Source: Psammoneis japonica (Eukaryota). From it: DNA of 64,000 bases. Position numbers and translations under genes: made by a program. Of the stretch, positions 28,186 to 64,000 are shown piece by piece (positions within the stretch are counted from its first letter, which is position 1; every line of letters starts with the position of its first letter). The notes below the pieces were generated by a model. It made no database searches. It was not told the DNA's origin and worked only from the letters and a program-made list of their open reading frames with translations. Location: assembly GCA_008632985.1 (NCBI GenBank), contig QPGO01000005.1:310001-374000 (forward strand), given 5' to 3'.

Positions 28186-28313
28186 NGGGGATCCAACGTT
28201 TGTGTCTGCGTTTTCAGATTGTCAATGCTTCGTGTACATTCTCAGGGCTCAATAGCAATCCGCAGTGATTCGTCGAGAATCCAGCTAAAGAGAAAGCTGC
28301 TCTCAGCACCAAC

Positions 28314-38782: not shown

Positions 38783-39299
38783 GGTGCTGAAACGCTTTCT
38801 TTCGAATTTGTGAGACTGGCTGTGGGTCATGACATCCGATTTCAGATTATCTCGCGATTATTCTTGAGGATGCCGGTACTAACTCTCGTACAACAAATAT
38901 GTAATTCTACGAGTGTACGAGAATCAATCGTAGATTCGATAGAATTTCGAAATTCGCTTTCAAAGCATAAATTAAATAAAATATGGATATATACAAATAA
39001 GATGGGTTAATGGCCGAATAAGTCATTGGCATGTCTATTGCCTGGGGCGGGTTTCAACGACTCCGATAGTTAGTACATAACGTTATGGACATTTTGGCAC
39101 AATACCGTGGAAGTCATTCCCGCGCAAACTCACAAATTCAAGATCAAGAGTTCGGTTCGCCGTGCCTTCCATCGTCGTCGGAAGCTCCGACCAGTCCTAA
39201 CAAACCGTTCTGGTAGAGTCCCCCTTGTTCACGCAAAGAAGCTCTATCACACAACATGTTGGCAATGTGTTGCATTCAAAAACCAGATCTAAATTTAAA

Positions 39300-40720
39300 G
39301 TGCCATCACTCCTTTGCCGGCTGTGCCGGTGCTGGCTGACCCACATCCCCAGCACACAGCTGAGTGCGGCAGGAGCTTGCACGGGATTGGCTGGAATGGG
39401 CATCACCAGAAGGTGACACCCCACCAAGACAACTAAAAAGGAATGACTCACATGAGGGATTCATTGCATGCTTGTTGATGACAGCCACAGAAGGAACACG
39501 CCACAGCTGCAGCAGCGGACAATTGCGCTCGGCAGACAGGTTTTTAAAATGGTCCACAAAAGGAGCCTTGAAGGCAAGACAAGCAGGTCATCAGAGAAAA
39601 TGTTCATGGCACACAGAAACAACACTGGGTCTTGTACAGAAAAGCCAACGGGAGCAGCAAACCGAAGACAATCAAGTGGCGCCACAGGATGACTCGCGCG
39701 CTCTTGCTGAAAAGGGCCGCAACAGAAGCAGCACAATCACCACAAAGAGCGAAGCACTTGATTGCATGGCAGAGAAAAGAAATGGGGTTGAAGACCAGAT
39801 GGCAAGGACAAAAGCAGTCTGGAGAAGTAACACGTAGATGGTCAGTGGCAACGCGCAGAAACAACGCCAGATCTTGCGCAGAAAAACAGGCGGGAGTGGC
39901 AAATGGAAAACAATCAAATGACTCCAAATGACAACTGACATTCTTGCTGAAAAGAGCTGCAATGGAAGCAGCACTTGCACCACAAAGAGTGAAGGACTTG
40001 ATTGCATGGCAAGGAAAGGAAGTGGCGCTGAAGACCGACTGGCAAGGACAAAAGCAGGCCGGAGAAGTGACGCAGCAGCACCCGCGGATCCACACAGAAT
40101 TTGTGCTAGAACCTGTGCAGAAAATTTTCTGAGACAAAAGAAAATTACAAGAAATGACAACTGGCACATGATGAGCCAACAGGCAGCGACACTCGTCATT
40201 TTCCACTGATGAACTTTGCCCATCATGCCGCACAACAAGAGTGCGCGCCATTGGCAAACGTGGACAGAACGGGCTTGTTGGCTGGAGCCAAATCAACACC
40301 ATCTGAGAATGGTGACATCAGCACAAGAGCACATGCATGAACACATGCAGGAGGTTGCCAGTGGGTGCATGCACAGAAGAGTGCATTCAAAGAACTCTGG
40401 AGCGCACTTTTGCAGAACAACATTGTGTCTTTCTCAAGGAGGAGCAGGTTTGAGTGCACTGTGCCAGCCCTTCCAGTTTTAGTGTGGAGCAGTGTCCACA
40501 TCAATGACAACACCACCTCCATCACTGTGAAACAAACCATTTGTCCCACTCGCAGTGCTTGCAGTGGACACAGCCAAGCGCGCCGTGCTTTTTCCTCGTG
40601 GATTGCGAGTTTTGAAGTCAGAGGGCCGCCTCTGTCTGTGGTGTCATGAATGTCTAGAGTGACAGCAAACACGGAAAAATCCATGTTGAAATGAAAATGA
40701 CTGCGCAATCAACCTGGGCT
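39300..40720. mobile_element. Degenerate repeat/TE relic, TpA-depleted island
   Basis: About 9 TA dinucleotides in ~1.4 kb by manual count, TG/CA-rich, no credible ORF, contains an internal ~241-bp duplication. TE family not identified. Confidence 0.55.
39608..40080. repeat. Diverged ~241-bp tandem duplication
   Basis: CAGAAACAAC at 39614/39856, GCTGAAAAG at 39706/39946, GGCAAGGACAAAAGCAG at 39801/40041. Confidence 0.9.
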
Positions 40721-40966
40721 GCCAACCGAAGGACCTCTACTCTAGCTAGCAGCTCTCTACTGGCAGCAGCATTTATTTTGTCATTCCGTTGATTATAGCT
40801 CATCCGCCCATACATCATCACTCGAGATTTTGACCTTTATTCTTTTATTCTAAATACTGTATGGTAAATTACCAATTTAATTATTTATATTTGTAGAAAA
40901 AAGATATCCATTCGAAAAAGCCGCAATCCGCCGCAACAAGCCGACATCGCATTTTTTCTTTTCGCC

Positions 40967-44688: not shown

Positions 44689-45026
44689 GCTCACTATTGG
44701 ACGTTTGGTTGTCAGAAGTGTTTCTTGATGCTTTCGATGAGACAAAACTCGACCATCTGGATCTCGCTTCTGTTGAACGAGGATATTGCGGATAAAGATG
44801 TTAGTTGTGGCTTGTGGCCGCCATTGGCCGCCAAATAAAAAAAGAGATGATGATGGATTCCTTCTGACGGAAGTTACGACATATATATATTTATTCCGGT
44901 ACATATATTTATGATACGGTAGAACACGACTAAGATATTAGAAATAAGGATTCCGTATTCCAATATCGTTTGCAACTTCGCCATAAGACAGTCGCCAAGC
45001 TTTTCTACACAGCCGAAAGACGGACC

Positions 45027-48000
45027 ATGGCGTCGGAGCCGCAGAGTACTTCAAAGAAACGACTTCGTCCCGATTGGACGAATGAAAGCGATGACGAGAA
45101 AATCAAAGAAGTAGTAGAGCCAGAAGAAGTCACCTTAACGCCACACACACATCGGCTATTGCGACTCATTCAAGAAGGCACAACCGAACATGCCAAGCTA
45201 GCAGCTTCGCATCTCACATCTATTGCTGCGACATCATCTCCCTTGATACTGTGGGATTTATTGGGGAGACTTGTAGAAACATTAGCATCGCCATTGTGGA
45301 GCTGCAGATACAACGCAAGTCTTGCAGTCGAGGGGATCGCGCGACACTTGCCACCGTTGGACCAACAAGAGTTTCTTGCATCCAATCACGAGCAGCATAG
45401 TGACTCGGAGGGATTATGGTTAAGCATATCCGACTTGGATCGACCCATTGATGATTCAAAGAAAGCGATTGGCTTAGATTTGGTGATTGAAAAAGGTCGT
45501 CTCCTTCTGGCGTCGTCGGGAACTCAGTACGACTCTGAACTTGACGAAGCCTATCAGAGCGAAGCTCAACAGCTGAATCGGCTGGATGCTTCTTCTGGTA
45601 CCCGTGCTGATTTTTTAAAGGAAAGAATTGCTCTTCAACGGTCAATATTGGCGCAGCGATTGGGGTTTGGTGGTGTATTGGGTTCGGTGACGGACGAGTC
45701 ACAGTTCTTTTCGCATGTCTTGACAAACGAAGACCTTTTGGTGTCGTCATCGACTGCAGAGGTACCGTCGGCTACTTCACGTCGACAGCAGCATATGGAA
45801 CGAATCAATAGTCGGCGAAAAGAGGAGAAGGCTCGAGAGGATTCCTCTAACTCAGTACGAGCTCTGTTGGTTATGGAAATGAATCAACAACAAAAGGCAT
45901 GCGCTGGAGCGACTTCCCATAAGAACCCACAAACACTCTTGGGGACCGAATTCATCTATCAAATGTTTTCCCCATTTTGGTATGTGCGGCATGGAGCCTT
46001 GCTTGGGGCTCTTGCGTTACTTAGAGCTTGGAAAGGCTCGTACACGGACAGAAACAATGCAGCTTTCGGCGTGTGGCCTCATGACATTTTGGCACGATGT
46101 GTTTGTGTCTTGGCCTTGGATCGATTTGGTGATTATTCCGGCTCGTTTGACATAGCCAGTGATAAGAACTCAGACGAGATTTCAACAGATGTGAGTAGTG
46201 GCGGTGTTGTCGCACCCGGCCGAGAGGTGGCTGGGCAGCTCCTTTCAATGATTCTCGCAATGGCACCCCAGAAAGTTCAGCAAGATTGTTTGAATCTCCT
46301 ACTGCACATGACGAAGCATCCTACAGAATGGGAGGTGAGACATGGCGCACTATTGGCGTTGAAATATATAGTAGCTGTCATGATGGTAGATACTGCAGAA
46401 GGGAACGTGGAGATGATGAGTTGGCTTGAGAAGGTATCGCGTGCTGCAATTGAGAGACTTGTCGACAGCAGTGAAGATGTTCATTGCGTCGCATCACAAG
46501 TACTTTCCAGTCTTATTTCAGCAGAAGCAAAAGTTGTCTCTCAGACCAAATCGCATTTGGATTTCAATGCCTTGTGTGAGGCTGCGGTCAAACCACTCTG
46601 GGAAACCCTGGCAAAGGTTGGAGTTGTTTCTACTTCCGTCGTGGACCTTGTCGACTTGTTTTCTCGAATCGTTTGTCGCGACCCGAATCTAGTGCTTCGT
46701 TACCTGACAACGGATGGCGCCAGGACAAACCTTTCATCTCGTCATGCAGAAACGCTCCGACATCTTCTCGAGAAGCTTGCCGACTTCCTAGACTACCCTT
46801 CTCTGAATGTAAAGCTCTCTGCGCTCCGCTCTCTTGAGGTTGTAGCTCGGCCAATCTCAGCCATTATCGCTCGCGCTGCTGCTGTCGACCAGGGAGACGA
46901 CCAATCAACAGCTGCTTTTGCTTGTTGCGCTTCTGTCCTTCTCCAAAACCTCTTTGATTCCTACTTCGATGGCTCGCTTGTGCATCCCGACGACGGCACC
47001 GCGAGTCGCGAGCTAGAACGACTAACTAGCGCAAGGGATCACGCGTGGAGGAAGCTGGTCGATAATTTCCAGGCCCTCTTCGAGAATACCAGAGAGCTAT
47101 ACATGAAACTAGCAGTATCTTTGATTCTTCGCTACTTCGGAATCAGATGGCCGGATAGTAGCAGGTCAGCGGAAGATGGAATATCCTTGTCAGGTGCTGG
47201 AACGGCTATCCACACATCCGACTCGCTTGACCTCCATGCAGTTCGAGCCCGTACTGCACGAGTTCTTGTGTATTTTCTTTGGGCAAACATTGCTCGTACA
47301 GAGTCGGTCGATAATATTGCTGTCGACGTTGATAGGCTGCTTTGCGTCACGCTGGCTTCGCATCTGCAATCCCCTTGGCCCGACCATTGCGAGGCGGCGT
47401 GTCTGCTCTACAAGGAACTTGGCCTTTTGCTGACTACAAATGAAAGCCTCCAACCGCTGCTTCAATCGTCGCTTGAGACCTGCCAGTCCCTATTGTGCGA
47501 TATGCTGGTTCTATCGCCCTACTGTATGCGGCTCGGAACAAATAAAGAATCCGAACAGGAATTGGCCGCCTTGTGTAATAGCGCATTCACTGCCACGCTT
47601 GTTCGACAAATTGACGCAAAGAATGGAACTCCAAGCCAACCCCTTGATTCGGTACAGGAACTCGTGAACCTGTGGAAGGAGTCTTTCAAAGCAACAGGCG
47701 CAGCTATCGATGCGAATGAAGATCTCCCACCTCCGGTTAGTATGGAATCAGTACGGTTGCAAGCGGTGATAGCAGGATGCATGCTTCCCTTTGGTAGGAA
47801 ATCCCTCCCACCGAAGCTCACCCCAATGATTCGATCTCTCATGACAGCTCTAAAGAATGAGTCAAGCAGATCTCGACAGAGAGAGATCTCTTTAGACATT
47901 GTTCAGATGTTGAAGCTTCTATCTATGGGAGACGATCTGAGAGTGAGAGATAGGGTGTTAGAGAATATCTGCGTCCTTGTGGAACATGAGAAATCATCTA

Positions 48001-50766
48001 CTGGCCTTGACACCAATGCCAAAGGCTTCGCTGCGGCCGCGTATGTTCTCGAGCAAATAGTCCATCAGCTTCCAAGTGACTACACCATAGAATGCCTTCC
48101 TTCAATTTGGGCGAGAATAAAGCTATTGAACAGGTGTAATCAATCTGCCACAGAGGAAGTGGTGCTGGAGAACTCCTTACGCATTTTGGGTGTTGTGTCG
48201 AGATCGCTACGACGTGATGCCGACTCCTTCGCTCACTTGATGGACTTTGCGGTCCCATCTCTCGTGCTTCTCGCTTGCGAGTGCCCTTTTCAAAATGCCC
48301 GATGTCTTTCCCTAGCAGCGTTTGAGTCATTTTGCAGGGTCGACGCTTCGAGGACACTCAAGAAAGGATTGAGAATTGTAGTGAAGTATCTCAGAGACGC
48401 TGAAAATGACGCATACAGGCTTGCGAGTTGTACCTTGCTGCAATCGATCATCGAATCTGCCGGGACGGGAATTTGCGAGTTCGTCAGGTACCTTCTGCCT
48501 ACTGTGATGTCACTGATGACTGATCCGTTAATAGATTGCGCGAAAATGGCTGCTCGGAGTTTTGCTGAGTTAGTAATGATTGCCCCTCTAGTGCGAAGAG
48601 ACCAGTCATATTTTGTTGAGGCAACCGACGTCAACGATTCTGCCACGAAGGTGATTGATCATCTAATTCATGGATTACCCCTCCCGCCTTGTCACCTGCC
48701 AGCTGCAATCACATCGGATTTGAACCAGACCGGCACAACTCTGAGGCAGTACCAGAAAGAAGGCGTAGCTTGGCTAAGGTTTTTGCAGACGGTAAACCTC
48801 AACGGAGCTTTGTGTGATGATATGGGAACGGGAAAAACGTTGCAAGCTTTGGTGGGGATAGCAATTTCGCATTGCCAGGCGATCGAAGCTGGTGAGACCC
48901 CTGTCTCTTTGGTCGTGTGTCCTGCAACGGTCGTCGGTCATTGGGTTGCAGAAATCAAAAAGTTCTTTCCCTCCGAAAACATATTTAGAGTTTTACCGCT
49001 TGTCGGCCGCGCAAAAGACAGAAGATGTCAGTGGAATCGAGAGATCTCAGCTTGTAACATCGTTGTCACGAGCTACTCCTATCTCCGTAGTGACATTGAT
49101 TTGCTCGCAAATAAAGCGTGGCGATATTGCGTCTTAGATGAAGGCCATCTACTCAAAAATCCCAAAACAGGTATGTTTATTCTACCGTCGCAAGTTCACT
49201 CTCGCGTGTGTGATCTCATTCTGAAATCTCGTTTCTTTTCTTCACTTCAAGCTACTGCCGTCGCGTCTCGACGCATCCGCGCAAGTCACAGATTGATACT
49301 CACTGGAACTCCCGTTCAGAATCGCGTGCATGAGCTCTGGGCAGCTTTTGATTTCCTCATGCCAAACTTCCTCGGCACGGCAACTTCTTTTACGAAAGAG
49401 TTTGCAAAGCCAATTGCATTGGGGCATGCTCTTGACGCATCTGCAGAGAGCGTGGGGATTTCCATTCAGAAGTTGAAGTCCTTACACCAGCAAGTGCTGC
49501 CTTTTATTCTGCGGAGAGAGAAGGGGCAAGTTCTAGCAGAGCTTCCTCCGAAGTGTATCACGAATATACCTTGCACCATGAGTGTGGAACAAGAACGTCT
49601 CTATCGAGAGTTTTGTTCCGGAATTCGAGGCAAGAAATCTCTTGCGGCGTTGCAAAAGCTTGTGAATGAATCATCACACGAACTGCACACTGATCGTGAA
49701 TCGCAACGTCCAATAGCAGTCGGGGCTGATGTGCTTAAATCTCTACTTTACCTAAGGCTTATATGCACTCACCCCTCGCTCGTAAGTGGGCGGCAGAGAT
49801 CAGGTGCTGGCCTTTCTGACGGTAGGCCAATTGATCGTTTTGACTCCTCCGGCAAGTTGCTGGCGCTGAACGAACTGCTCCGTGGCGCCGGGATATGCGG
49901 TGATGAGATCACGGCTGCTGACAACGACACGTCTCTGTTCTTTTGTGACGATGAATGTGCTGACCACGACTCCTCTCTCGATGTTGAGAATGGGACTTCT
50001 CATGATCGTGATCAACTCGATGCAACCGCTGGCTCAGACCAAAGACCAGGTGGATCGAAGTGCTTAGTATTTGCTCAATTCAGCCAGAGCCTTGATGTAA
50101 TTGAGAAATTACTCTTCTTGCCTCACATGGCTTCGTTGCGGTACCTGCGGATGGACGGGAGCACTCCTCTCAAAGAACGAGACAGAATTGTTGAGAGCTT
50201 CAACATGGATGAAAGCATCAAGGTTATGCTGCTAACAACTCGAGTGGGTGGACTCGGACTCAATCTCACAGGTAAGTATGCTATTATCATGCAGCGCAAC
50301 CTTTGTAGAAACGTGCCTGAACCCGTTATGCTTGCGTGCATTATCAGGCGCTGACACCGTGATTTTCGTTGAGCACGACTGGAATCCACATACTGATTTA
50401 CAAGCAATGGATCGATGCCACCGCATTGGTCAAACCAAAACTGTGAATGTGTACAGGCTGGTCACGTCCGATACGATAGAGGAGCAGATAATGAAAATAC
50501 AGGACGCCAAACTTGCAATGAGTGAAGCAATCGTAAACACGGACAACTCCACAATGTACAGCATGGGAACCGATCGGCTACTGGATATCTTTGCATTTCG
50601 AGGTAAAGCAGCTCAGAACGACGGTGTCGAAAGCTGTGGCAAGAGCGAATTTGACGGGTTTGATGATTCATCCTATACTTCTGACGACTATTCGAGCCTT
50701 TCGTTGAAGGAGTTCGTCCGTGGATTCTTACGCGACAGATCTCATCACGGCAGTGAAGAATCTTGA
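45027..50766 (+). CDS. BTAF1: TBP-associated SNF2 ATPase BTAF1/Mot1
   Basis: HEAT-type [73 protein letters not shown] and [13 protein letters not shown]; introns near 49171-49251 and 50272-50348. Confidence 0.93.
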
Positions 50767-50835
50767 TAAAAGCGCTGATCTCTTTGTCAGGCTTCACCAT
50801 GGGAACGCTACCAGTACTTTTAATACCTGGATATC

Positions 50836-51453
50836 TTATAACCCATTTTCAACAAAGCCCATTGCCTGTAACACAAGTCCCGCGCACTTTCGTCGAGCTA
50901 TGTCAAAGTCGTTCTCTGAGAGAAGTGACTGCATCTCTGTTTCATCCTTTTCCGATGGTCCCAGGAGATGAAATCGTTTCGCCACATCTTGAATTAAACG
51001 ACGGGAACGCTCTTCTTCGCTCCCTCTTTCGTATTCCTGGGCAGCCATTTTCGATAGAACTACCCCGTATCCTCCGCGTCCTCCATCGGAGCCATCCCAT
51101 CGACCGCGTTGCCAAGCTAGAGCTAATACGAGCTTCACTTCTTCAAAGGGAATGACACCATTTTCACCTAAGCTAGGACTTCGAAGATTATCTACCAGGG
51201 AAGATCGTGACTGGCGATCTGAAAACTGTTGACGACAAATAGCAGCACAGTCATGCCCCGTACCAACCGCTGAGCCCCAATTCCATTCCGCAGACGTCCA
51301 GCCTGAATTGGGGATGTTGTAAATTTCTCGATTACCCGAGGACATTATCATAAACGAGAAAGCTGATACTCTTGAGGCAATAACAACTGCCAAGTAAAGC
51401 AGCACCGGTAGTGCTGTCCGTGTCTGAGCCTTTTTCATGGCCAATGTTGCCAT
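50836..51453 (-). CDS. Conserved-looking hypothetical protein, probably plastid-targeted
   Basis: Signal peptide plus VSA-FSF; Trp/Gly-rich motifs SGWTSAEWNWGSAVGTGHDCA and WQRGRWDGSDGG. Start Met 51453 or 51438. Confidence 0.7.
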   Translation of the reverse strand: MATLAMKKAQTRTALPVLLYLAVVIASRVSAFSFMIMSSGNREIYNIPNSGWTSAEWNWGSAVGTGHDCAAICRQQFSDRQSRSSLVDNLRSPSLGENGVIPFEEVKLVLALAWQRGRWDGSDGGRGGYGVVLSKMAAQEYERGSEEERSRRLIQDVAKRFHLLGPSEKDETEMQSLLSENDFDIARRKCAGLVLQAMGFVENGL

Positions 51454-51494
51454 GGTTACGTCGCCAAAATGCCAAAAAATGAAAAGTGGAGGAC

Positions 51495-51579
51495 GTGAAG
51501 TCGGACGGCTCACGCACGTACCAAATACGTCATCATCGTCCGTCCTTCTATCCAAGTTTCATGACACTGCTCGAGAAAC
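51495..51579 (+). repeat. Left copy of an ~85-90-bp direct repeat bracketing the large island
   Basis: GTGAAGTCGGACGGC...CCAAGTTTCA...CGAGAAAC aligns to 61300-61389. Confidence 0.9.
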
Positions 51580-53479
51580 AGATAGAGAAGACACAGCGAG
51601 AGTGACGACACTCCTCCGGCCGATTTCAAGACTGGCGGCATGGACCATCAGAGCTGCCATGGATGATGTGGGATCAACCTTTGGCCGTTGTTACAGGAAG
51701 ACAAGGGCCCAAGGTTGGACCCGACGGAGCAGCGACACAGCAGGGGCGGGGTGGGGGGGGGTGAAGTGCACAAGATGATTGTTCCCTGCAAGCTGGCGAC
51801 TGTGATGACACAAGGACCAGCAAGAAGAAGAGACATGGAAAAAGGTGCCTGACTGTCATCCACAAACAGTCTGGCTGGCCATGTGCACCAGCCGCACTGG
51901 TCAAAAAACTGATGACACCGTCCCCTGACCCCCCCTCCTGCCTGGCACGTCTGGGCCAGAGACAGTGCAGGTCACAGACAGGCTGACAGGGAAGGCATGA
52001 ATGTCAGCAATCAACCAGTGAGATGCATTGCAAACCAGATGACCCAAGAGCAAGTGGACAAAACAAAAACACAAGGGGCTGTTTGGGTGGCAGATGCCAA
52101 ACAGATGGGAGACAACAACGTGCCTCAACAGAGGTGTCCCGCAAGGGGGGCACTCTGATTGGAGACATGTCTGTGCCAAATGTCTGTGCCACCAGTGGGG
52201 CGCAAGGCACAATGATGGCGCACAATGCATTTTCAGGTGCTGAGGCTGTGGAACTTCAACAAAAAATCAACTGGACAGGCTTTCTTGTGACCGCCGCTGA
52301 CAGAATGCAAAACCTGTTTGTTGAGGAGGGGGTGGCACACAGGAGCAAACAGCAACATGCTCAGACTGCAACATGCCCTTTCTTTGTTTCTGCAAGGGGG
52401 CACATGCAGGCAGCCACCCACATCCACAGGTTGTTGTGCTGCTGGTGTGCCAAGTGCCAGACAGACTTTGAGTGAACATGGATTGTCAGGACAAGTGGGC
52501 TGTGCAAAAGAAGTGGATCCTTGTCACCCATGCAAGTGACATGTGCACCAGCACCCAGCTGTGCACATGGTTTGTCAGGCTCAAATTGCACTGCGTTGAC
52601 CTTGAAAAACTTTTCTGTCGGTGTCATGGGTGATGGATGGTGAGACCCATGATGGCGCACTTGGTGAGATGATCTGATCTGAGTTTGAGGCAGCAAAGCC
52701 ACACGCGCATGTTTCACATGTCCAGAACAAAGCAGATGTGGTCAACTCCAATTGCAATGACCACTTTTGCACATGACAAGCTTGGAGAGCAAGCTCCATT
52801 TTGCAACCCAACATTTGACAAGAGAATGACCTGAATCATCATCAGAGCTCCACAGAGCTCTCACCTTCAGAGAGCAGCTTTCTTGACAAGTGATGCAACT
52901 GGTGTGGAACAAGGGGTCTGCTGATGTTGCCAGCAGGATGAGTTCATTGATGATGTGCCTGTGAATCAGTGTGCCATGAATGTCATCCTTGGTTTGGATG
53001 TGTTTCAGATCATCAAAGAACTGACCCAGATCTGGGGTGCATCACCACACTTGTCATTCAGGCAACCTGTGGCCTGTTGCTGGTTTGCACATTGTTGAAA
53101 AGTGAGCTGTGTGTTGGCAAGAGTGTCAACAGCACCCTTTGTGGTGTCTTGAGATTCACCATGATGGAGGTGCCCTCATCATGCATGGAAGTGTGAGCAC
53201 TTCCAGGATCAAAAAGCTGTTTTGTGCTCATTTGGCTCACAAACCACCAAACAAAACAAGATGGGGTTGTGTCAAAAAAAAAAGAACATGTGACAAGACA
53301 AGGCTGCAAAATGATGGAGCAGAAACACATTGAGAGGTGACATGCACAACAGACTTCCCTGCAAACTGGTGGCTGTGACAACATGAGCACTGGTGAGAAA
53401 GAGTGAGAAGGAGATCTCAGAGAGATCTGCCTCATCTGCTGTCCAAAATGCTGCCTGACCATCATCTGCAAACAGCCTG

Positions 53480-54110
53480 GCCATGTGCAATGGTGCTGGC
53501 CAACTGACAGGACCAGGGCAGGTGTGCTGCCTGGTGCATTTTGCTCTGCCAATGTTGAGGATGCAAGAGCCAATGTGGATGACAGAAGCACAACAGAAAG
53601 TGTTGTGGTCTCACTCCTCCATGCTCCATCCTGAAACCAAGCAACCTGTGAAGATGTTGCAGCAAGCTGATTGACTGTTGGAGTGTGGTGGCTTGCCATG
53701 CTGTCAATGTGCACCCTCCAAAACCTGCAGTTCTTCTGCAGAAATTCTGAGTTGGCTCACACTGATCAAGACCTTGCGCTGGCAAACACAACTTAAATCA
53801 CCATTGGGCACCCAAAAGAATGATGAGATGAGCTGCAATGCGGTGATGACATGCTGGGACAGGAACAACTTGCTGTGCCCAATGCAAGCCTGGGATGCAG
53901 CAGTCTTCCACATCTCCTCAACAACCTCCCTGACTCCAGTCAATGTTTCAGCATGGATGGTCAAGCACCTGCACTTCTTTGCTCCTGTTCCAGACTTCTT
54001 CAATCCTGAAAAACCAGGAGTGCACAATTGTCATGAGCTCCAAGCCATCACAATTGCCGTGAACTGCAAGCCATTGCTCATGCAAACAATGGCCCATGCT
54101 GAGCACAGTT
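53480..54110 (+). pseudogene. Possible tyrosine-recombinase remnant of a DIRS/Ngaro-like retroelement
   Basis: Across frames: GAF..A(M)LR..E, HTDQDLALA...ITI, QKNDE...V....LLCPMQAWDAAV..I.S....TPV. This recalls the QK.DE...LCPV.AW pattern of such recombinases. From memory only. Confidence 0.4.
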
Positions 54111-55507
54111 GATGGTGCAACAACTGCTGCGCAGCTCACTCTCTTTGCTTGAGCGGCAGTGCAGAGATGAGAGTGGCTGATCAGAGATCAAAATTTTGCA
54201 AGTGAGTCATGATGGTCATGTCAACTGCAGAGCCATTCTTGGGTCACTGGGGAAATGTTCAGGGCTAGAATCTGTGACCTGAGGGGGGGGGGGCTTGGTT
54301 TGATGGGTCATTGTTTGTTGGTCCTGTGAGCCAGAGCAATTTGCACAAATCATGTGCAAGTTGGGACAGCAGGAGGCATGGACAAGTGGATGAGTGCATC
54401 TTGTCATTTGGCTGCTTGTGCACACCTGACATTCAGCAGACTCAATTTCCTGCACAAAGGTCACCTGTCATTCTCTGTTGACAATGCTGGATTTTGTTGA
54501 TGATGATGCATGAATCTGTGTCATGTGCTGCAGTGCTGTTGAGTTGCTGCTGGGGAATGGGAGTCTTGTGCCATGATGCAGAAAAGCATGCAGAAAAAGT
54601 TGTGCTCCACAAAATTCTTGGGGGGGAGAAAGCTGACTCAGATTTTTTGCCTTGTTTCATGTGACATTTGCATCCCAGTGACCATGTCAGTTGGAGGCCA
54701 GTGGTGGCTTAAGGTGCTTGGTCCTGTGAATGAGCTCAACACTTTGCTCTCTTCAGCAATGCTCAAGGGAGAGGCACTTGGGGATGATGATGCAGCACAC
54801 CTGCAAAAAAACAGTGACAAGGGTGTCACGGTCACGGCGCAGTTTTTGACATCACACATTCACTGCACCTGCCACAGAGCTTGTTGACAGAGCTCTTCCA
54901 TTGGTGTGTGATGAGAAGCTTGTGTCTGCAGGCATTGATGGTGCCTTGGTTGATGCATGAGAAGCTTGTGTCATCTGCAGGTGTTGTTCCAGTCTGTGCA
55001 TTGACAGGTTCCATCATTGACAACAAAAGTGTGGCCCAAGAGGCTCCTCAAGACAGAAGTGTCCAAAACACCAACTGGTGAACAGAGGAGTTTTCTGCAA
55101 AGCACAAGACAGCACATGATCTAGGATGCCAGCACTCTGGGTCTGACTGCCTGTCATGATCTGGGACTTTCCTCACTGTGATCACAAAAATGGTGTTGCT
55201 CAACAAGCCAGGCATTTTTTTTTTGTTTTAGCTCAAAACTGGCTGAGTTTGCAGGGCTCTGTCAGAAGCAAAACCACACTCCACTTTTGTCAAAGGGCAA
55301 TCTTGTGTCCAGCCCCACAGTCAATTTGGTTCTTTGAGTTTGTTTTGTTGTTTCTCTTGCTGCCGTCTCTCTTCATTCAATGCAGTCACTGCCCCTGATT
55401 TGTCTCATTGCATGTTTCTTTAAAAATTTGTGCTCCATGCCACCACCTTCATGTTTTTTACCTTGCCACAGATTTTAACTGCCGCTGAAGTTGTGGCTTG
55501 CACACTG

Positions 55508-55931
55508 GCTTGGTTGATTGCTGCTGCTGCATGCTTGTTCTGCACTGGCATTTTTTGTGCTTTCAAAGGCAGGTCATCCCTCCCATTGGTGTGTCACACC
55601 ACTCCTCTCTCTCCTCCCTCTTTCATTTCTTTTCTGCTTCCCTGGACAAGCTTGGCGTTGATTGCCATTGCTGCTGCTTGTTCTGCACTGGCATTTTGTG
55701 CATTCAAAGGCAAGTCATCTCTCTCCCGTTGGTGTGTCCCACCACTCCTCTCTCTCCTCCCTCTTAAATTTCTTTTCTGCTTCCCTGGACAAGCTTGGTT
55801 GATTGCTGTTGCTGCTGCTTGTTCTGCACTGGCATTTTGTGCATTCAAAGGCAGGTCATCTCTCCTGTTGGTGCATCCCACCACTCCTCTCTCTCCCCCT
55901 CTTTCATTTCTTTTCTGCTTCCCTGGACAAG
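55508..55931. repeat. Three tandem copies of a ~142-bp unit
   Basis: Units start at 55508, 55650 and 55793; each ends CTTCCCTGGACAA. Confidence 0.95.
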
Positions 55932-57569
55932 TTTGCTTTTTCTCACCTCTGTTCACTCCTGGAACCCAGACTGCAACCTGGGTTGTCAGCTCTGTCCTGC
56001 TTTGCCCACCACACATGCACAGCTCATTGCATTTCTGTGGGTGATCCTTCCATGCTCCATCCCTGACTCTGCTTTGCCAACTCACCCCTTCCTTGGGTCA
56101 TGCACTTCACATCCTTTACATTGTCCGCTGTCAGTTTCCTCCTCCTTGCAGTGTCATCTTTTTGTCCTTCTCCAATTTTTAAGTTGTGATGGAAGCCTTG
56201 TTGCAGAAGTTCAAGCACACGAACATGGCAAATGCATGGATGAAACAGCAAGTCATTCTTCTGGTGATTCAGCGGTGCTTCTGCCAAAATGTGTCTGGCC
56301 CACCACTGTCGGCACAATGTTTTCCACAGGAACCATGCACACATGTCCCTGTCTGCTTGGCTTTTCTTCAAGTCCTTGCACTCTGCCAGCAAACCTTCCA
56401 AAGTGAAAACTGCACGTGCACAAAAAATGATGCACCAGGCTCACCTGTTTGAAAAGACACACAACTCTGACTCTTTGTCAGGTGCATCATTGTGGCTCAC
56501 CTGTTGTTCATCTCCTGGTGTTGTCTTGCACATTGTTCCTCTTTCTGTTGAGCACATTCCAAAAGACCTCTTTGCATGCATTCCAGAATGCTTTTTTTAA
56601 CCTTGCCATGCTTCTCTTGAACTCCTGCAATGCCATTTTTGTACAATCACCTCCCAGCACTGCCAGCTCTTTTTCAAACGACAACAATGAATTTGTGGTG
56701 CAGCCACAAAAGTTCATTGACAACCTTGGTCAACATTGATCCAACTGTTCTCTTGCTCATGACTGGAGTGTGATCCATCACCTGATGTCCCATCGGAGTT
56801 GCCACAGAACTGGAGCTGCCCCATTCCAGCTAGAATCAATGCAATTCTTTCATTTGCAGGTTCATGAGCCCTGCTGTTGCAGGGCTCATGGTCACCGCAA
56901 TTCATCCCAAAATTGCCAACAAACTTGTTGGCAGTCTCTCTGATCATCTGTCCTCTTGCAACTCCTGCTCTGCCCAACTCACTGCCAGGAGCCACCCTGC
57001 CACCATCTGGTTCTGTCTGCCCTGTCACAACTGAGCCTTCCATCTGCATGCACTCTTTTCTGCATCTCAAGACTGTGGCATTTGTTGTCATCACCCATTG
57101 TTTGTGCCACCAGAAGTGGCAAAGTGAGCGCACTTTTTCAGAGTTGGCTTCTGTGTTTTGTCATTGGAGGCATCTCCTGATTCACTGCCTTTGCACCAAC
57201 TTTCTTGGCTCATCTCTTTGATGATGGTGGAACATGTCCAATCTTCTCACCATTTGAAAAGTCTCTTAACAAGTGCAACCACCACATTCAGGCAAACGCC
57301 TGACTCCGATTGTGGCAAGGTGATGTGGCAAAGTGCAACTGAGCTCTGTGCAATCCAAGAGCAGACATGATTCTTGGCCATTTGGCAACATGGATGAAGC
57401 ACAACAATGTGGAATTTGAGCATGCTCTGTTTGATGTTTTGGGCAGAACAAGAGCCAGATTGATGTCATCATGATGAAGGCCAGAGATGCAGCAACCCTT
57501 GGTGCAAGAGTTTTGCTGCAAGTGGAAGGTGTGCCAAAACAACACTTTTCTAGATGGGTGTTGCATTGG

Positions 57570-57680
57570 GGAGCATTTGTTCAAGCACTGGGTGGCAATG
57601 GCCAACCCTGTTGTTGGAATGGACCACAACAAAAACACACAACATTTCATTGGCAAAGGTGCATGATCATGTGCTGGCCT
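57570..57680 (+). pseudogene. Possible Myb/SANT-like (Harbinger ORF1-type) remnant
   Basis: W.....NPVVGMD(Q/H).K..TF.W..VHDH pattern across frameshifts resembles LCxAW...DPIVGxDQ...FW. Confidence 0.25.
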
Positions 57681-58089
57681 TCTCCCACAGCTCACAGTTT
57701 GGTCTGGTGCAAATGTTGCACAAGCTGCTCACAACAAGTTCACAAGAGCTTGAATCTGGCAAGGTGCTGCTGTGTTTGATTGTGTTCTCCTGCAGCTCTT
57801 AGTTTGGTCTGCTGCAAATGTTGTGCAAGCCATTCACAACAAGCTCCTGAGAGCTCAAATCCTGCAAGGTGTCATTGAATCCTTTGCCAAGCTCTGTTGG
57901 TCAGGGTTCACAGGGACATCTGACAACTTGGCACTTTGACCCTCTCCAAATTCTGCCACAGCCCATCATGGACTTCAACGTTGCTTGACAACAAAGTTCC
58001 AACTCAGATTGGCCAGTGGATGACACATGAGGAGGTGTTGGAGCCTGCCAGTTCCATGGTGGGTTGGGATCACAGGTTGCACCACTTCA

Positions 58090-58410
58090 TCTGCCAGAAA
58101 CAAACAGCAACACTTTGCAAGAAAGAGTGGCACTTGCATCAATCTGCTTTGACTGCTGAAAGCAAATGGCGCTGCTTCACATGAAAGAGATTGTGTTTGT
58201 GGAGATTGTGATGCTTTGTCTGCTGGAAGCAAACAGCGCCACTTTGCAAGCAAGAAAGAGCCTCCTTGTTTTGGCAAAAGTGCCTCACATGGCATCTCAC
58301 TCCTTTGTCTGTCAAAAGCAAACAACAGTGCTTCAAAACAAAAAGGGCAGGTTGCGGCATTTGCAGAGATGTTGATGCTTCTTTTGCTGGAAGCAAACAG
58401 TGCTGCAGAG
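58090..58410. repeat. About 5 degenerate copies of a CTGCTGGAAGCAAACAGC-like motif at 65-90 bp spacing
   Basis: Copies near 58091, 58153, 58220, 58309 and 58385. Confidence 0.6.
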
Positions 58411-59097
58411 CAACAAGCACAACAAATCCCACTGCAGCCATTTTGCCATTTCCAAATGTGCACTCAGCAGGGTGTGCCTTTTGATGGTTTTTTGTCATGC
58501 AGTTGATGCAGCCCTCAAACATCTCAAGCTGCACTGCAGCAATTCTTTTTTCAGAGAGTTCTGGGGTGATGAATGAAGTGCCTTCTCACTCATGGCCTTC
58601 ATTTGATCATGATTCTTGCTGAGTGTCAGTGTCGCCTCATCTGAGATGGCTGCCTCTTCCTGCAGCTTTTCATTCATGCCAATTGCTTCCAGGCCACTTG
58701 TCAATGTGGTCCACAATGTGTTGGATTGTCATCTTCTGCAGCAGAGAAGGGAACCCTTCCAACACTTTCCAGGTCCAAGTTGTTGTCTGAGCCACTGGGG
58801 CTGCTCTTCAGTTGCTCTCTGCTGTTGTCATTGTCGTCATGCCCAAAATTGTCAAAGTCAGACAGAGCTGCCCCCTCCTCTGTTGTTCAAATCATCCTTC
58901 TCCTGAGCTTTGTGGGCATCTGTCACCACCACAACTTCTTGGTTTGATGGGTCATGGCAGTCTGGCTGAGCATGATGCACTGCACTGTGACTTGACACCA
59001 TGACACAACAATGTGACAGACAGTGGTGGCAGAGGAGCTGCGACATTGACCATGCATCACATGACACTGCAAAATGGTCTACAAAGCCACAAAAATC

Positions 59098-59200
59098 TCA
59101 AACAAGGAGCTTTGCCTTGGCCCTGGAGAGTTCACCTGCTGACAGGGTTCCATTGTCATGCAAAGCCTTGAGCTTGGCAAGCTTTTCTGTGACATCATCA
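59098..59200 (-). pseudogene. SHOCT-like C-terminal domain remnant
   Basis: DDVTEKLAKLKALHDNGTLSAGELSRAKAKLLV* fits LxxLKxLxDxGxL(S/T)xxE(F/Y)xxAKxKLL. Confidence 0.55.
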
Positions 59201-60404
59201 ACATTGTTTTGTGAACCAGCTGCCACGGCAGAGTTGCAAGCTGCATTTTCCATGGTGAAGAGGGCCTCAAACCTTGAGAAATGCCCTTCGTGATGGTGTT
59301 CTCCAAGCTGCTGACATTGCCCACCCACCAGGCATTGCCACTGTGTGCTCCCAATGCCTGTCCATTCCTGCAGTTTGTGCACAGTTTGTGTGTTTGATGG
59401 AGAGAGCTGCCCGCATCAGTGCATTTGTGCATCACGCAAAAGCAGCTGCAAACAAAAAAAACACTTGCACACAATCTCAAAGGTTCCTGTTGTGAGATCC
59501 ATCAGCTGAATTCCTCCCCTGCCATCAAAGGTCAACAAGTGCTTGTGCTGTTGGCATGGCCCCAGCACCAACATCATGGCCATGCCTTTGCCCAGATTTT
59601 TCTTGCACTCAATTTGCACCTTTGTGGACATTTCTTTCTGAATGTTCCACTCCTTGGCCAACTCCTGCTTCACTGGATTGACAAACAAGGTGGGGTGCCA
59701 AAAGACCAAGAATTTCATGTCTGACTTAACTGCCTTGACTTTGGTGATGCAATCACAGTTTGGGGTGTTGGCGGTGCTTCCATTGATGCTGATGATGTGA
59801 TCATCATGTTCTGGCTTGCTGACTCACCCATGCCGGAGAGTTTGCTTGTGCAAATCACCCACCATTTTTCTTCATGGAGACACCAATCCTGGCTGCTTTT
59901 TGATGGTTGCAGCAAGGGCGGGCATGGCGTCATTGCAACAGGAGTGGCAAAAGGACAATGAATGTGGAGAAAAGTGATGTGTGGCAAGAACAACAGGAGT
60001 CATTGTAAAACATGGCGATGGGTGATGGCACCACACTTGCACATCTTTTTGAGAAGTTTCAACTCATTGTTTTGGCAGAAATGACTGTGACTGACTGCAG
60101 CCAGGCCCAAGGTCACTGCTGGTGACATGGAAGTGACTTCAACTGGGCAGTGTCTCATGCACACCACCTGATTTTCTTGTGTTTTTGTGTGTGCAGTGTT
60201 GAGAAATGCATCGGCTGTTGAAGAGCTGCTGCAATGGCTTTGTCTCATTGCCTTGGTCTCTCCTTGCAACTTTGCTGTCTTCCAAGTCTTTGTCTTCTTG
60301 TGTGATGTTGGAGCCAGCCCCGCAAGGATGCCAAGAGCTGGAGCTCTGCAAGTTGGGCTGTGGAGCATCAACTGGAAGCTGGTCAGCATGGTCACACACA
60401 ACAA

Positions 60405-60428
60405 GAGAGAGAGAGAGAGAGAGAGAGA
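60405..60428. repeat. (GA)12 microsatellite
   Basis: Seen directly. Confidence 0.95.
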
Positions 60429-60609
60429 TTTTTGGCAACATGAGCACACAACAGCCAGAGAACAGGGCATCATGATGAGTGTGTCCTGGAAGGTTGCAGC
60501 AGCTGTGAAGCAAAATTTGAGCACTCCAATCTTTAGAAAATGAAGCTGACCTGGCTGCTTGATGGCAGGGCAATGCAAACCAAGAGCTGTCTGAGTTTAA
60601 CAGCACTCA

Positions 60610-60760
60610 TGGTGCCTTTGTCTGCCAAGGATCAATTTTGCAAAGCTGCCAAAAAGCCAGAGTTTGACACAGGTGAGGAGCTGTTTGACAATTTTGAGCA
60701 AGTGTTGGCTGGCACAGTGGAAGACAAATGGGGGAGATTGGCTGATGAAGCTCTGCATGG
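60610..60760 (+). pseudogene. Possible LTR-retrotransposon gag-like remnant
   Basis: FCKAAKKPEFDTGEELFDNFEQVLAGTVEDKW reads as real coding sequence and recalls diatom retroelement gag-like ORFs. From memory only. Confidence 0.3.
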
Positions 60761-61299
60761 TGCATGGTGAAAAACTGTCTCAAGCACCTTCTTGGCAAGG
60801 GGAGTGAGTCACTTTGGTTTGCAGCACAGTGGTTGAACACATCTGCCAACCCTGAAAAACTGTTCAAATCTGAAGTGCGGGCTCAAAGGGAGGTGTTGGT
60901 GCCCTGCTGCTGCTCTTGCAAGCTCACAGCAGGAGCTGCTCCACACAGGTTGTGAGGAGCCCCCAGAACAAAAAGATGGTGTCAAAATCATGACTGCTTC
61001 ATTTCACCCAAACAAGCTCTCAGAGCTTGCACAATGCTGCAAAGCCAGCATTGATGACAAGACACACTGCGCCAACGACTGCTCGACCAGGAAATGGCCA
61101 CACCTTTGACTGTTGCTTTGGCTGTGTTCGTTGTTTTGGGGCTTTTCTTGATGGTGCTGTTGCCTTCGTGACTTTGACTGTTGCCACAGTCAACGCACGT
61201 CAAAAGTCTGTTTATTTGACTTTGGCTTTTCAGGCACTGAGACACCCTGAGCATGATGCATGGTCTGTCTGGGAGGTCTGCGGCAGGAACAGCGAAGAG

Positions 61300-61389
61300 G
61301 TGAAGTCGGACGGCGCACGCACGGCACCAAATGCGACAACATTGTCGGTCCTTCCGTCCATCCAAGTTTCAAAAAACTACACGAGAAAC
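61300..61389 (+). repeat. Right copy of the ~85-90-bp direct repeat bracketing the island
   Basis: Aligns to 51495-51579 with two small indels. Confidence 0.9.
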
Positions 61390-61627
61390 TGCGAGAAAAG
61401 CCGTTTTCTCTTTTATAAACCTGCTTACCGCTCTCCTCTCTAGAGAGTAGAAGTTTACAATTCATGTTAGAGAGGCAAGTGGGTGCTCTTTGTCGTTTTG
61501 CAAAAAGGTCCAGGAAGATTGAACGACAATAACAGACAACCAGTGGCATTTAACAACCTCTTGGTGATACCATAAAGAGAGATATGTTTAACATTGGGAT
61601 AGCACCCAGCCAAAAGGAGCATCGATA

Positions 61628-63724
61628 TCATGACGGTGATAGTTTGTCAAGTAGGTCTAGCACCTTGTCTGTTCGAGATACGGCAATCCTCCCAATTTCG
61701 TTTCCGACAGCGCTGACAACGTTGAACGGCAGACACGAAAGAAGCTCCATTGCTTGGTTTTTCCTCATGGGATAGCTTGTGTATGGCAAAGCCTGCCCAA
61801 TACCCTTCTCCCCCAACATTCCGTATACGAATGCAGTTACCGCCCAATTGGTGACATCAAAACACCCCGTGGCCTCCATATTGTCGGGAACGGCGTTAAA
61901 GAGTAGCCGGTAAATCTCTTCTTCGCCGTGGCATGCCTTAGTATGGAATTGGTCTGATGTGAAGACGGGGAGTCCATAGCCCATTTGGTCGGAAGTGTAT
62001 CGTCTCGTTCCACATTTGTCTTTTCCCCCGACAGAATCCCCCACGAGGAAACAGTAGGGCACGTCCCCACCCGTCAATTCTGCAAAGGCAGATACAATGG
62101 AGTTGCTTACGGCTTTGCATTCGATGCAGAGTTTACCAACCTTTGAATTTTCACGATAACGACGCAGAAACTGCCCCACTTCTAGTGCATCTGGGACGCC
62201 TCGGAAGGAGACAAAAAAGTTGTCTTTCTCAAAAGAACTATCAACAACTTGTTGCAAGTTCTTGACTGCCATGTGATAATCACCGACGGTGTAGAGTTTG
62301 GGCTGACGCAACGCAGCGTTGAACTGCGGCAAAAGCCCCCATAGTTTTATCAGGTACGACTCCATGTCGGTGGAGGCAAACACCCCACGAAAGCGATTGA
62401 CAACGTCGGCAGCCCGTTGGACGGCCTTTTCTAGCTTGCATGTAGTCAAACACAGTGAGTAGAGACGATTCGCTTCTTCGAGTCGATCATACATGTCCTG
62501 GAGTGTCAAGGGATTGCTTTTTGCTTGTGGCGACGAAAGGCTCTTTCTTTGTTCTGGATTGCCGCCACTACGAATAAGGCTGCGTCTCCTGGAGTCCTTT
62601 CGTTGCTTCAGAAAGAGCTGTCTATCCACGCAATCGCAGGAAAGCCCAAGGCCGCAAGAAAATGGAACGGTTGCTTCAATACATACAACCACCTTGGCAA
62701 GTTGTGCTTTGGTCAAGCTGTTCTTCAAAACCCTCACAGCCACAATTGATGCAAGAAGCTTGTCCTTGATGTATGATTGAAGCTCTTGTAGTTGTGGTTT
62801 CTCCGGTTTGACACCAAACATTGTCATAACCATATCAACGAGTAGGTCCTCCCCGTGTTTGTAAGCGTTGCCATCAGCATTTTGAGGAGCAAAGTAATTG
62901 ATACCGTTGTCCCCCATCAATACCAAAATGTCCTCCACCAATTCGTGCAAGTTCGCACACAAATGTCCACTATCCATTTCGAAACTCACAACGTTGGAGA
63001 AGTAAATCGCCAGCATCTGAAAAGGGTCGGCACCATGGGATACTTCAAACATGGTATCGATTCCCATGAGCGGTGCCCGCTGGATGTTTGACATGCAATC
63101 ATGAATGCAAATGGCCCATGATTCCAGTTCCTCGTCGGACTCTTGTCCGTTCAAAAAGTCAATGCTACACTTTAGATCCAAAACGAGACGGGTCAAATAG
63201 GTAGGCTGTTCTTTCTCAAACAGTTCTTGTCTCGTTTTCCCAAAGGCTCGAGTACCCCCAGCGTTGACAAAGCGAAAACATCCACCCTGGCTGGCCTGCA
63301 GATTCAGCGACCTCCCGGCCAGAAAGTTGCAGAACTCTTCATACGAAACAAACCCCTTGCTTTTCACGTCCATGGCGTTGAATGTCTGCTGTGAATCGGT
63401 AATCGATAGGCTCGATGCTGTCTTCATGAAATCCTTTTTGTACAACCGTTCCTCTGTATCATTCGAAGTCGTCTGAAACCACAAGTTGTTGTACAGCGCT
63501 AGATAACGCAGAAAGAGCTCGAACTCATTTCTGTCAATGAATCCATCCTTATTCACGTCGGAAGCGCGGTATGCTCTCATAATAGCCGACTTGTGCCGAT
63601 ATCTCGGCCACACAGTGCGGACAGCCGCCTCCAATTCACAAATGTTGAGTTTGCCGGTGCCGTTGAAGTCCAGCCCATCAAAGGTGCGCAAGCACGTTTC
63701 GGTGTCAGGAACGGAGACAATCAT
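61628..63724 (-). CDS. EF-hand Ca2+-binding protein with a large helical, degenerate HD-like domain
   Basis: EF loops DFNGTGKLNICE, DVNKDGFIDRNE and DVKSKGFVSYEE. Then WAICIHDCMS, ADP...LA..F(SN)VV, IEATVPF, W.LLP..N..LR...YT and F..FRGVP; intronless, 698 aa. Confidence 0.8.
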   Translation of the reverse strand: MIVSVPDTETCLRTFDGLDFNGTGKLNICELEAAVRTVWPRYRHKSAIMRAYRASDVNKDGFIDRNEFELFLRYLALYNNLWFQTTSNDTEERLYKKDFMKTASSLSITDSQQTFNAMDVKSKGFVSYEEFCNFLAGRSLNLQASQGGCFRFVNAGGTRAFGKTRQELFEKEQPTYLTRLVLDLKCSIDFLNGQESDEELESWAICIHDCMSNIQRAPLMGIDTMFEVSHGADPFQMLAIYFSNVVSFEMDSGHLCANLHELVEDILVLMGDNGINYFAPQNADGNAYKHGEDLLVDMVMTMFGVKPEKPQLQELQSYIKDKLLASIVAVRVLKNSLTKAQLAKVVVCIEATVPFSCGLGLSCDCVDRQLFLKQRKDSRRRSLIRSGGNPEQRKSLSSPQAKSNPLTLQDMYDRLEEANRLYSLCLTTCKLEKAVQRAADVVNRFRGVFASTDMESYLIKLWGLLPQFNAALRQPKLYTVGDYHMAVKNLQQVVDSSFEKDNFFVSFRGVPDALEVGQFLRRYRENSKVGKLCIECKAVSNSIVSAFAELTGGDVPYCFLVGDSVGGKDKCGTRRYTSDQMGYGLPVFTSDQFHTKACHGEEEIYRLLFNAVPDNMEATGCFDVTNWAVTAFVYGMLGEKGIGQALPYTSYPMRKNQAMELLSCLPFNVVSAVGNEIGRIAVSRTDKVLDLLDKLSPS

Positions 63725-64000
63725 AATTTATTGTTTCCTGGCTTTCGAGTTTTAAAAACAGTCAAGATTTTTCTTCGCAGGTTTAATCTACGGTAATCAA
63801 TCTATCTCGCAATACAAGGAACAGGCTCTAGCTACTAGAGAGCAAAATGAGGACTTGTACGAGTTGGCAGCATGCGGCAGCAGCGCGGCGCAGATGGCGG
63901 CCATCGAAAAAAAATGTCGGAGTTCTGTGCGTGCGCGAAAAGGAGCGAGCGCTCGAGCGAGCGGGAAAATACCGTACCACGTGTTGTGCACCCGCCTAAT

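Follow-up and report, generated by a model that had tools for sequence, protein, structure and literature searches.

A DNA block nearly devoid of TpA in Psammoneis japonica: the footprint of a probable TpA-directed A:T to G:C hypermutation

What could strip nearly every TA dinucleotide from almost ten kilobases of DNA and leave the sequence on either side in its ordinary state? The question is raised by an island at positions 51,584–61,377 of a 64,000-nucleotide stretch of Psammoneis japonica (contig QPGO01000005.1, positions 310,001–374,000; this whole stretch is the window, and all positions are given in its numbering). About 400 TA would be expected across the island and 24 are present, and it is a discrete block with normal neighbours. 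The island owes its pattern to mutation in place, at a time when the copies of its internal repeats were already there, both TA and CG having been turned into TG or CA, and the two losses are processes of different spatial extent. It is probable that the loss of TA is the work of a TpA-directed A:T to G:C hypermutation, likely by adenine deamination, acting on a silent insertion, with decay of methylated CpG superimposed in the core.

TA and CG were converted in place to TG and CA

Counted over 51,600–61,370 (9771 nt), the 24 TA correspond to an observed/expected ratio (O/E) by base composition of 0.038, compared with 0.58 for positions 1–51,599. CG is present 83 times (O/E 0.142 against 0.98), and TG and CA number 1190 and 1070 (O/E 1.85 and 1.86 against 1.15 and 1.13). 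These counts bear out an earlier sequence-only reading of this DNA, which had put TA at about 23 in some 9.7 kb, with low CG and very high TG and CA, and had described a 2.1-kb stretch with no TA at all. That stretch, the longest such run, is 51,693–53,793 (2101 nt). Given a background of 0.0407 TA per nt, as few as 24 TA would turn up in the island with a Poisson probability of 5e-135, and none across the 2101 nt with a probability of e^-85. The other steps made of A and T alone are little affected (AA O/E 1.22 and TT 1.14 within the island, 1.13 and 1.14 outside; AT 0.81 within). The near absence of TpA at a G+C content of 0.49, the same as that of the flanks and the rest of the window, also upholds the description of the island as the inverse of repeat-induced point mutation (RIP). 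At either end the change in TA density takes place over tens of bases, between 51,583 and 51,692 on the left and at 61,378 on the right.

The status of the island as real DNA was checked with Logan contigs (k=31). The sequence was present in one sample only, X1, which is probably the assembly's own, so that agreement with it is not independent replication. X1 contigs reproduce 95% of the sampled words. Their k-mer depth over the island is 63–67, equal to flank depth, and they bridge both island borders (47,969–51,751 and 60,438–63,914). [They break at an (AG)12 microsatellite, 60,404–60,428.] A basecalling artefact or contaminant, the reservation attached to the sequence-only reading, is hardly credible in the light of this coverage, whether it is imagined as miscalls at modified bases, as a chimera or as foreign contamination. 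That the sequence is found in a single sample is in its favour, but contigs with such depth over the island and such reach across its borders could not have come from noisy long reads, and miscalls would not be expected to generate the flank rule or the paralogue swaps described below. The main X1 contigs differ from the window by nine substitutions in total, all nine in the island (within 51,753–61,377) and none across about 8 kb of flanks (binomial p about 0.004). Four of the nine are interchanges between CG and TG or CA, and two make up a single CA/TG swap at 56,575–56,576. Heterozygosity or recent mutation, concentrated in the island, could account for them, and hypermutation is possibly ongoing.

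Conversion is apparent from the balance of losses and gains. When dinucleotides are sorted by the purine (R) or pyrimidine (Y) nature of their neighbours, flank classes that a transition at the central step does not alter, TA plus CG are down by 841 in all and TG plus CA are up by 883. In a simulation in which 94% of TA and 86% of CG were converted in ordinary window DNA, the 16 dinucleotide O/E values of the island were reproduced with r=0.98, the root-mean-square deviation falling from 0.37 to 0.08 and the O/E for TG and CA coming to 1.82–1.83.

More direct evidence comes from repeats within the island, whose copies can be compared both in nucleotides and in a two-letter purine/pyrimidine (RY) alphabet (E-values in that alphabet are uncalibrated and long matches alone were retained). 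In ten paralogue alignments, two pairs of which share one copy and so are not fully independent, double transitions were found at 29 of 200 YR steps and at 17 of 659 other steps (Fisher p=3e-9). All but one of the 29 are CA/TG swaps, the per-step frequency of which is 5–6 times that of any other double transition. Such a swap implies that an ancestral CG or TA decayed independently in each copy. Paralogues accordingly retain far more RY identity (0.76–0.99) than nucleotide identity (0.27–0.94), for example 0.88 against 0.67 and 0.92 against 0.72.

Several of these repeats illustrate the point. One site in the three copies of a 143-nt tandem repeat (55,508–55,938, + strand) reads CA, CG and TG. 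The 105-nt tandem repeat of about 2.4 copies at 57,625–57,882 (+ strand) has a nucleotide identity of 0.70, an RY identity of 0.84–0.95 and seven CA/TG swaps. A dispersed repeat, with one copy at 51,723–51,900 and the other at 53,297–53,506 (both + strand), was detectable only by search in RY space (RY identity 0.76–0.88, nucleotide identity 0.51–0.67); over two aligned blocks its copies differ by nine double transitions at YR steps, with CA/TG swaps visible among them. Single sites with TA in one copy and TG or CA in the other are also present between paralogues, though the sites that can be polarised are few and come without an outgroup.

The island is bracketed by an imperfect direct repeat of about 107 nt, and this supplies a comparison across its border. 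The left copy (51,489–51,595, + strand), outside the TA-free domain, has kept four TA. Three of these are CA, TG and CA in the right copy (61,294–61,400, + strand), which is inside the domain as far as 61,377, and the CG shared by the two copies are all unchanged.

That nothing happened locally, the island being foreign or ancestral DNA that was already poor in TA and CG, or DNA kept so by selection (for avoidance of a nuclease or restriction enzyme, for instance), is highly improbable on this evidence. The loose ends of related X1 contigs do look TA-poor as well. But the excess of CA/TG swaps between paralogues, and the CG or TA remaining in one copy, imply that the ancestors carried both dinucleotides; a host-derived repeat lacks TA only inside the domain; mass balance and forward simulation match simple conversion; the same flank rule holds in an unrelated second island; and neither a coding nor an RNA-family signal offers selection anything to act on.

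Loss of TA and loss of CpG differ in extent

Though both dinucleotides are depleted, they are not depleted over the same ground. In the CpG-poor core (52,710–61,069, 8360 nt) there are 22 TA and 42 CG. The G+C-rich left margin (51,584–51,950, 367 nt) has one TA and has kept 14 CG, and the right margin (61,070–61,377, 308 nt) has one TA and 17 CG, which is background density. An intermediate segment (51,951–52,709, 759 nt) has no TA and 11 CG. In both margins, therefore, CG is near normal and TA is gone, CG loss being confined to the core.

A second TA-depleted island, at 39,246–40,737, is the only other of its kind that a scan of the whole window revealed. It is 1.5 kb long, occupies a divergent intergenic spacer, contains a 242-nt tandem duplication at 39,606–40,124, and has 12 TA, seven of them in YTAR context. 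Its TA in other contexts are about 90% lost; only about a third to 40% of its CG are. Since TA has been lost in the margins of the first island and in the second island, where CG is largely kept, TA loss is independent of CpG loss. With the swaps in place and the mass balance, this supports the proposal, already made from the sequence, of a TA-specific A:T to G:C process distinct from CpG decay. No sequence relationship between the two islands was found by RY 24-mers or RY-space BLAST. [At 4201–4800, TG and CA are modestly raised and TA is low, 6–10 per 400 nt, a far weaker effect than in either island.]

The CpG component has familiar features: depletion of CG, gain of TG and CA, and variation between CG and TG or CA, both between reads and assembly and between tandem copies. 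CG in A/T-flanked contexts (TCG, ACG) is the most depleted, YCGR being the most affected flank class, and the CG that survive in the core are mostly G/C-flanked (GCGG, GCGC, CCGC). The loss is most simply explained as deamination of 5-methylcytosine in methylated silent DNA. For Phaeodactylum tricornutum, cytosine methylation is reported to depend on DNMT5a, with its loss de-repressing young transposable elements (TEs) (PMC9998398), and is described as TE-limited (PMC12344493). What is seen here resembles decay driven by 5-methylcytosine in the conversion of CG to TG or CA with matching gain and in its strength at A/T-flanked CG. It differs in that such decay does not remove TA, and in that the CpG-poor core is narrower than the TA-free domain.

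The TA process follows a rule of its own. It is confined to TA, neither AA nor TT being depleted. Of the 24 surviving TA, 17 are YTAR (TTAA ten times, CTAG four, TTAG three), a class that makes up 17% of the background TA over the rest of the window and 19% over the part of it outside open reading frames (ORFs) (p=7e-9 and 3e-8). Relative to background density 25% of YTAR survive, compared with 4.7% of YTAY, 1.0% of RTAR and 0.8% of RTAY. YTAR is the only class with R-T-A (which is T-A-Y on the complementary strand) on neither strand, so one of these flanks must matter. The second island shows the same rule, with seven YTAR where 10.3 would be expected and five of the other classes where 50.8 would be (p=0.0025). 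As to which of the two flanks is the effective one, the product gain, 351 for RCAR plus YTGY against 168 for RTGR plus YCAY, leans to an edited A that is followed by Y.

The products TG and CA are interleaved at random (runs test z=-0.61; TG share 0.46–0.61 per 500 nt), which means that both strands were targeted, site by site, in many events. Strand-coordinated bursts of kataegis- or RIP-like kind are rejected on the same test, and a process confined to the transcribed strand does not fit it. Since the 2260 TG and CA could each revert to TA by one transition and yet only 24 TA are present, loss of TA would appear to be at least about 100 times faster than its gain.

Contents of the island and its setting

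What was hit? No TE or viral family was matched at E<=0.001 when the island was scanned against Pfam in all six frames with stops read as X; at E<=1 the only matches were SHOCT (0.0025) and DUF7129 (0.18), both far below curated cut-offs. Scans of the island for Rfam families and tRNAs gave none. Period-3 power in RY coding, a measure usable on hypermutated DNA because transitions cannot erase the purine/pyrimidine pattern, is at non-coding level throughout (maximum 5.8, genes having 5–30). The longest ORF of the island (232 amino acids, in a repeated segment) was compared with 1.84 billion proteins and gave one match, rejected as spurious: the target has 16 identical tandem domains, which had raised the score, a single copy scoring 28.9 bits. 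Terminal inverted or long terminal repeats were sought in RY space and none rose above noise. Derivation of the island from neighbouring DNA by hypermutation found no support either: RY 24-mers and RY-space BLAST within the window gave no match outside the islands.

Two segments do have relatives elsewhere in the genome. Over 53,212–53,812, which includes the second copy of the dispersed repeat, X1 contigs of 85–95% similarity pile up to a depth of 454, compared with about 64 elsewhere, and over 56,217–56,817 diverged contigs in the same range of similarity bring the summed depth to 280. The remainder of the island is at single-copy depth. The suggestion that the island consists of methylated TEs is thus only partly sustained: the two segments with diverged relatives fit it, and the lack of any TE or viral domain, the lack of coding periodicity and the mostly single-copy depth do not. 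With an insertion-like geometry and the dispersed relatives of the two segments on one side, and no recognisable viral domain on the other, the target may or may not be of viral or other foreign origin. Two X1 contigs join about 51,681/51,684 straight to about 54,190/54,294, and so there are other genomic copies without the roughly 2.5 kb present here; the difference is either a nested insertion in this copy or a deletion elsewhere. Other features of the island are a degenerate tandem array at 58,074–58,420 (+ strand; units of about 62–89 nt, with five copies of a 42-nt core) and a strongly T+C-rich stretch at 55,500–57,000 (GC skew about -0.25, AT skew down to -0.49).

Two convergent genes flank the island, their 3′ ends facing it. 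On its left is a gene for a Mot1-like SNF2 ATPase (44,934–51,463, + strand), and on its right one for an EF-hand protein (61,432–63,868, - strand; ORF 61,628–63,727). Spliced contigs from a further Logan run, X2, show two GT..AG introns in the Mot1-like gene, of 81 and 76 nt (approximately 49,171–49,251 and 50,272–50,347). [The run is labelled 'DNA?' yet is RNA-like in skipping both.] X2 contigs stop at 51,463 and restart at 61,432, with no cover over 51,464–61,431; they were not used as evidence of expression. Without the island and one copy of the bracketing repeat the spacer between the genes would be about 160 nt. The TA-free domain comprises the insert and most of the right repeat copy, and a repeat of about 107 nt is far longer than usual target-site duplications. 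The island would appear to be either an insertion with a long target duplication or the product of homology-mediated integration, and the right repeat copy could have arrived with the insertion or been made during it.

The other genes of the window are ordinary eukaryotic ones, including those for GCP3, a metacaspase, a DEAD-box helicase and a Mg-protoporphyrin IX methyltransferase (9238–9729, - strand), the last consistent with a photosynthetic host. For the GCP3 homologue the best named matches are diatom proteins, at 47% identity or less, from which the host is diatom-like, is not Bigelowiella and has no near relation in the database searched. A gene for a MiaB-like radical-SAM/TRAM protein is split across three adjacent ORFs (11,226–13,071), presumably by introns, and the window has a single N, within 28,001–29,000.

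A probable deamination, its rivals and its counterparts

The sequence-only reading knew of no characterised system with such a signature. There is one: conversion of TpA to TpG or CpA has been measured in the chlorarachniophyte Bigelowiella natans (Mettrop et al., bioRxiv 10.64898/2026.01.13.699255). According to the main text of that preprint, 230 of the 231 de novo mutations that mutation-accumulation lines showed in two regions, an integrated block from a giant virus, that is, a nucleocytoplasmic large DNA virus (NCLDV), and a virophage block, were A to G or T to C. The GC-biased mutations were all on TpA, at about 1000 times the genome rate; the genome has 124 clusters of TpA-poor, CpA+TpG-rich windows; and an ADAT2-like DNA adenine deaminase is proposed as the agent. 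Outside the preprint no report of a TpA-erasing signature was found, diatoms included, in a search that did not extend to most subscription journals.

The island can be accounted for as follows. About 9.7 kb of non-coding, partly repeat-derived DNA would have been inserted between the convergent genes and bracketed by the duplication of about 107 nt. A first process would then have turned TA into TG or CA throughout the domain, the host duplicate at its right edge not excepted, removing some 94–97% of TA. It would strike either strand independently, leave AA and TT untouched, and need R-T-A or T-A-Y on at least one strand. Its chemistry may be conversion of DNA adenine to inosine, which is read as G, and its agent an enzyme that is TadA/ADAT2-like or belongs elsewhere in the deaminase superfamily. 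A second process, decay of CpG to TpG or CpA via 5-methylcytosine deamination, would have acted in the core only. The first process would thus probably be enzymatic adenine deamination in DNA, and it may serve as a defence directed against silent or foreign DNA, the role proposed for the identical signature in B. natans. Of the agents suggested for this DNA at the outset, an adenine-deaminating activity remains the best guess, and it is also what the B. natans preprint proposes.

A number of points weigh against this account or parts of it. TA is its own complement, and so adenine and thymine chemistry are indistinguishable from the pattern. The defence role is an analogy, and the target has no viral or TE gene. 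No deaminase or DNA methyltransferase gene was found among the 49 ORFs scanned of the 77 in the window of at least 130 amino acids and outside the island, the rest being overlapping antisense frames. The expected densities are those of the rest of the window and not of the true ancestor, and some of the surviving TTAA could be new TA arising by transversion in runs of T and A. The lean towards T-A-Y is confounded by CpG decay, which feeds the product classes unevenly (YCGR being the most depleted), and two polarised paralogue sites lean the opposite way, fitting an R two bases 5′ of the edited A. As to an ongoing TA process, none of the nine differences between reads and assembly is a change between TA and TG or CA.

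How do other chemistries compare? Since TA reads the same on both strands, the flank rule and strand symmetry would fit equally well an activity on the T of R-T-A, a TET/JBP-like dioxygenase or another, whose products 5-hydroxymethyluracil or 5-formyluracil would pair with G. 5-Formyluracil is mutagenic towards T to C, and the 5-hydroxymethyluracil of dinoflagellates prefers TpA. Such a thymine-side origin is nonetheless unlikely, given that nothing in the analysis pointed to such bases in diatoms, that the sole experimental study of the TpA signature proposes adenine deamination and that deamination of A in DNA by an ADAT2 has been demonstrated (for amphioxus BjADAT2, see below). Patch repair, the other mechanism put forward earlier, is distinctly less probable still. 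In it, T:G mismatches left by deamination of 5-methylcytosine would provoke non-canonical mismatch repair by a Pol eta-like polymerase, with errors at WA. Pol eta does make A to G changes at WA in somatic hypermutation, and TA loss and CpG loss do coincide in the core. But AA and TT are not depleted though 94–97% of TA are gone, which would demand a specificity far beyond that of known WA hotspots, and TA has been lost where CG is intact (both margins) or mostly kept (the second island). The B. natans preprint likewise places all its GC-biased hypermutations on TpA.

Could the changes have been made in RNA? A-to-I editing of retroelement transcripts by an ADAR- or ADAT-type enzyme, fixed by reverse transcription and re-insertion, would give the A to G direction, and a 5′ U preference is ADAR-like, as is pointed out in the Discussion of the preprint (bioRxiv 10.64898/2026.01.13.699255); genomic relatives also exist for parts of the island. 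Against it stand the origin of the changes in place, with tandem copies that diverged by independent resolution to CA or TG, and the fact that the host sequence duplicated at the right edge is mutated too. Editing of RNA would leave its mark on one strand, but the products are strand-symmetric and interleaved. No reverse transcriptase or other domain emerged from the six-frame Pfam scan. UAG is the optimum triplet of ADAR, and CTAG, which presents UAG on both strands, is among the contexts spared. It is hard to believe in an RNA origin on these grounds.

Comparison with known systems shows what the present case shares with them and what is its own. With B. natans it shares the conversion of TpA to TpG or CpA, the discrete blocks, a footprint of low TpA with high CpA+TpG, and the susceptibility of single-copy DNA. 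The hosts are a rhizarian there and a diatom-like stramenopile here. TA O/E is 0.45 in the NCLDV block and 0.04 in the island. The target there is viral, and in the island no viral or TE gene can be recognised. CpG, co-depleted in the island, goes unmentioned in the main text of the preprint, as does the sparing of YTAR, though the flank rule may be in its supplement. There the rate was a measured one; here it is only inferred. New here are the diatom-like host, the near-saturation, the sparing of YTAR, the sharp borders, the CpG co-decay together with its independence, and the lack of a recognisable viral or TE gene.

Adenine deaminases in general (TadA, ADAT2-3, base editors derived from TadA, and ADAR) share the conversion of A to I, read as G, and, for ADAR, a 5′ U/T preference. 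Their natural substrates are RNA, and ADAR would not be expected to spare the CTAG and TTAG that are spared in the island. BjADAT2, the amphioxus ADAT2, deaminates both A and C in DNA, and the motifs given for it in E. coli are GAA and TCG (PMC10354150), not TA. In somatic hypermutation by AID and Pol eta, A:T to G:C change is likewise found, secondary to deamination of C; its WA target includes AA, which is untouched here, and in the island TA is lost without CG loss. RIP converts C to T, mostly CpA to TpA, and so raises TpA and A+T; it needs duplication and is premeiotic. The likeness is that local transitions in a dinucleotide context degrade silent, duplicated or foreign DNA beyond recognition. 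The difference is that the island has its TpA erased, with G+C still at 0.49 and most of the sequence single copy. Hypermutation of TCG type, which shares that likeness, has been reported for the TEs of basidiomycetes (PMC3318451).

A wider view may be tentatively put forward, though it is doubtful at present: TpA hypermutation could be an old and widespread defence of protists of the stramenopile–alveolate–rhizarian (SAR) grouping, in which a deaminase recognising R-T-A or T-A-Y targets silent inserts independently of CpG methylation. In a bolder form, a single ADAT2-like enzyme may deaminate both A at TpA and C or 5-methylcytosine at CpG. If true, this would be the mirror image of RIP in the direction of G+C, and at saturation all TAA and TAG stops and all Tyr codons would be erased.

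Defence by local hypermutation is well established only for C to T (RIP, APOBEC), and for its A:T to G:C counterpart there is one experimental report. With a saturated footprint in a diatom-like alga, the system would seem not to be limited to one species, and the footprint sets the rules that any candidate enzyme must reproduce: TA and never AA, YTAR spared, both strands, sharp borders and independence of CpG loss. Islands of this kind are detectable by composition alone, their origin being hidden from similarity searches unless the comparison is made in purine/pyrimidine space. Some diatoms are genetically tractable models, and if such islands are present in these the mechanism could be tested there.

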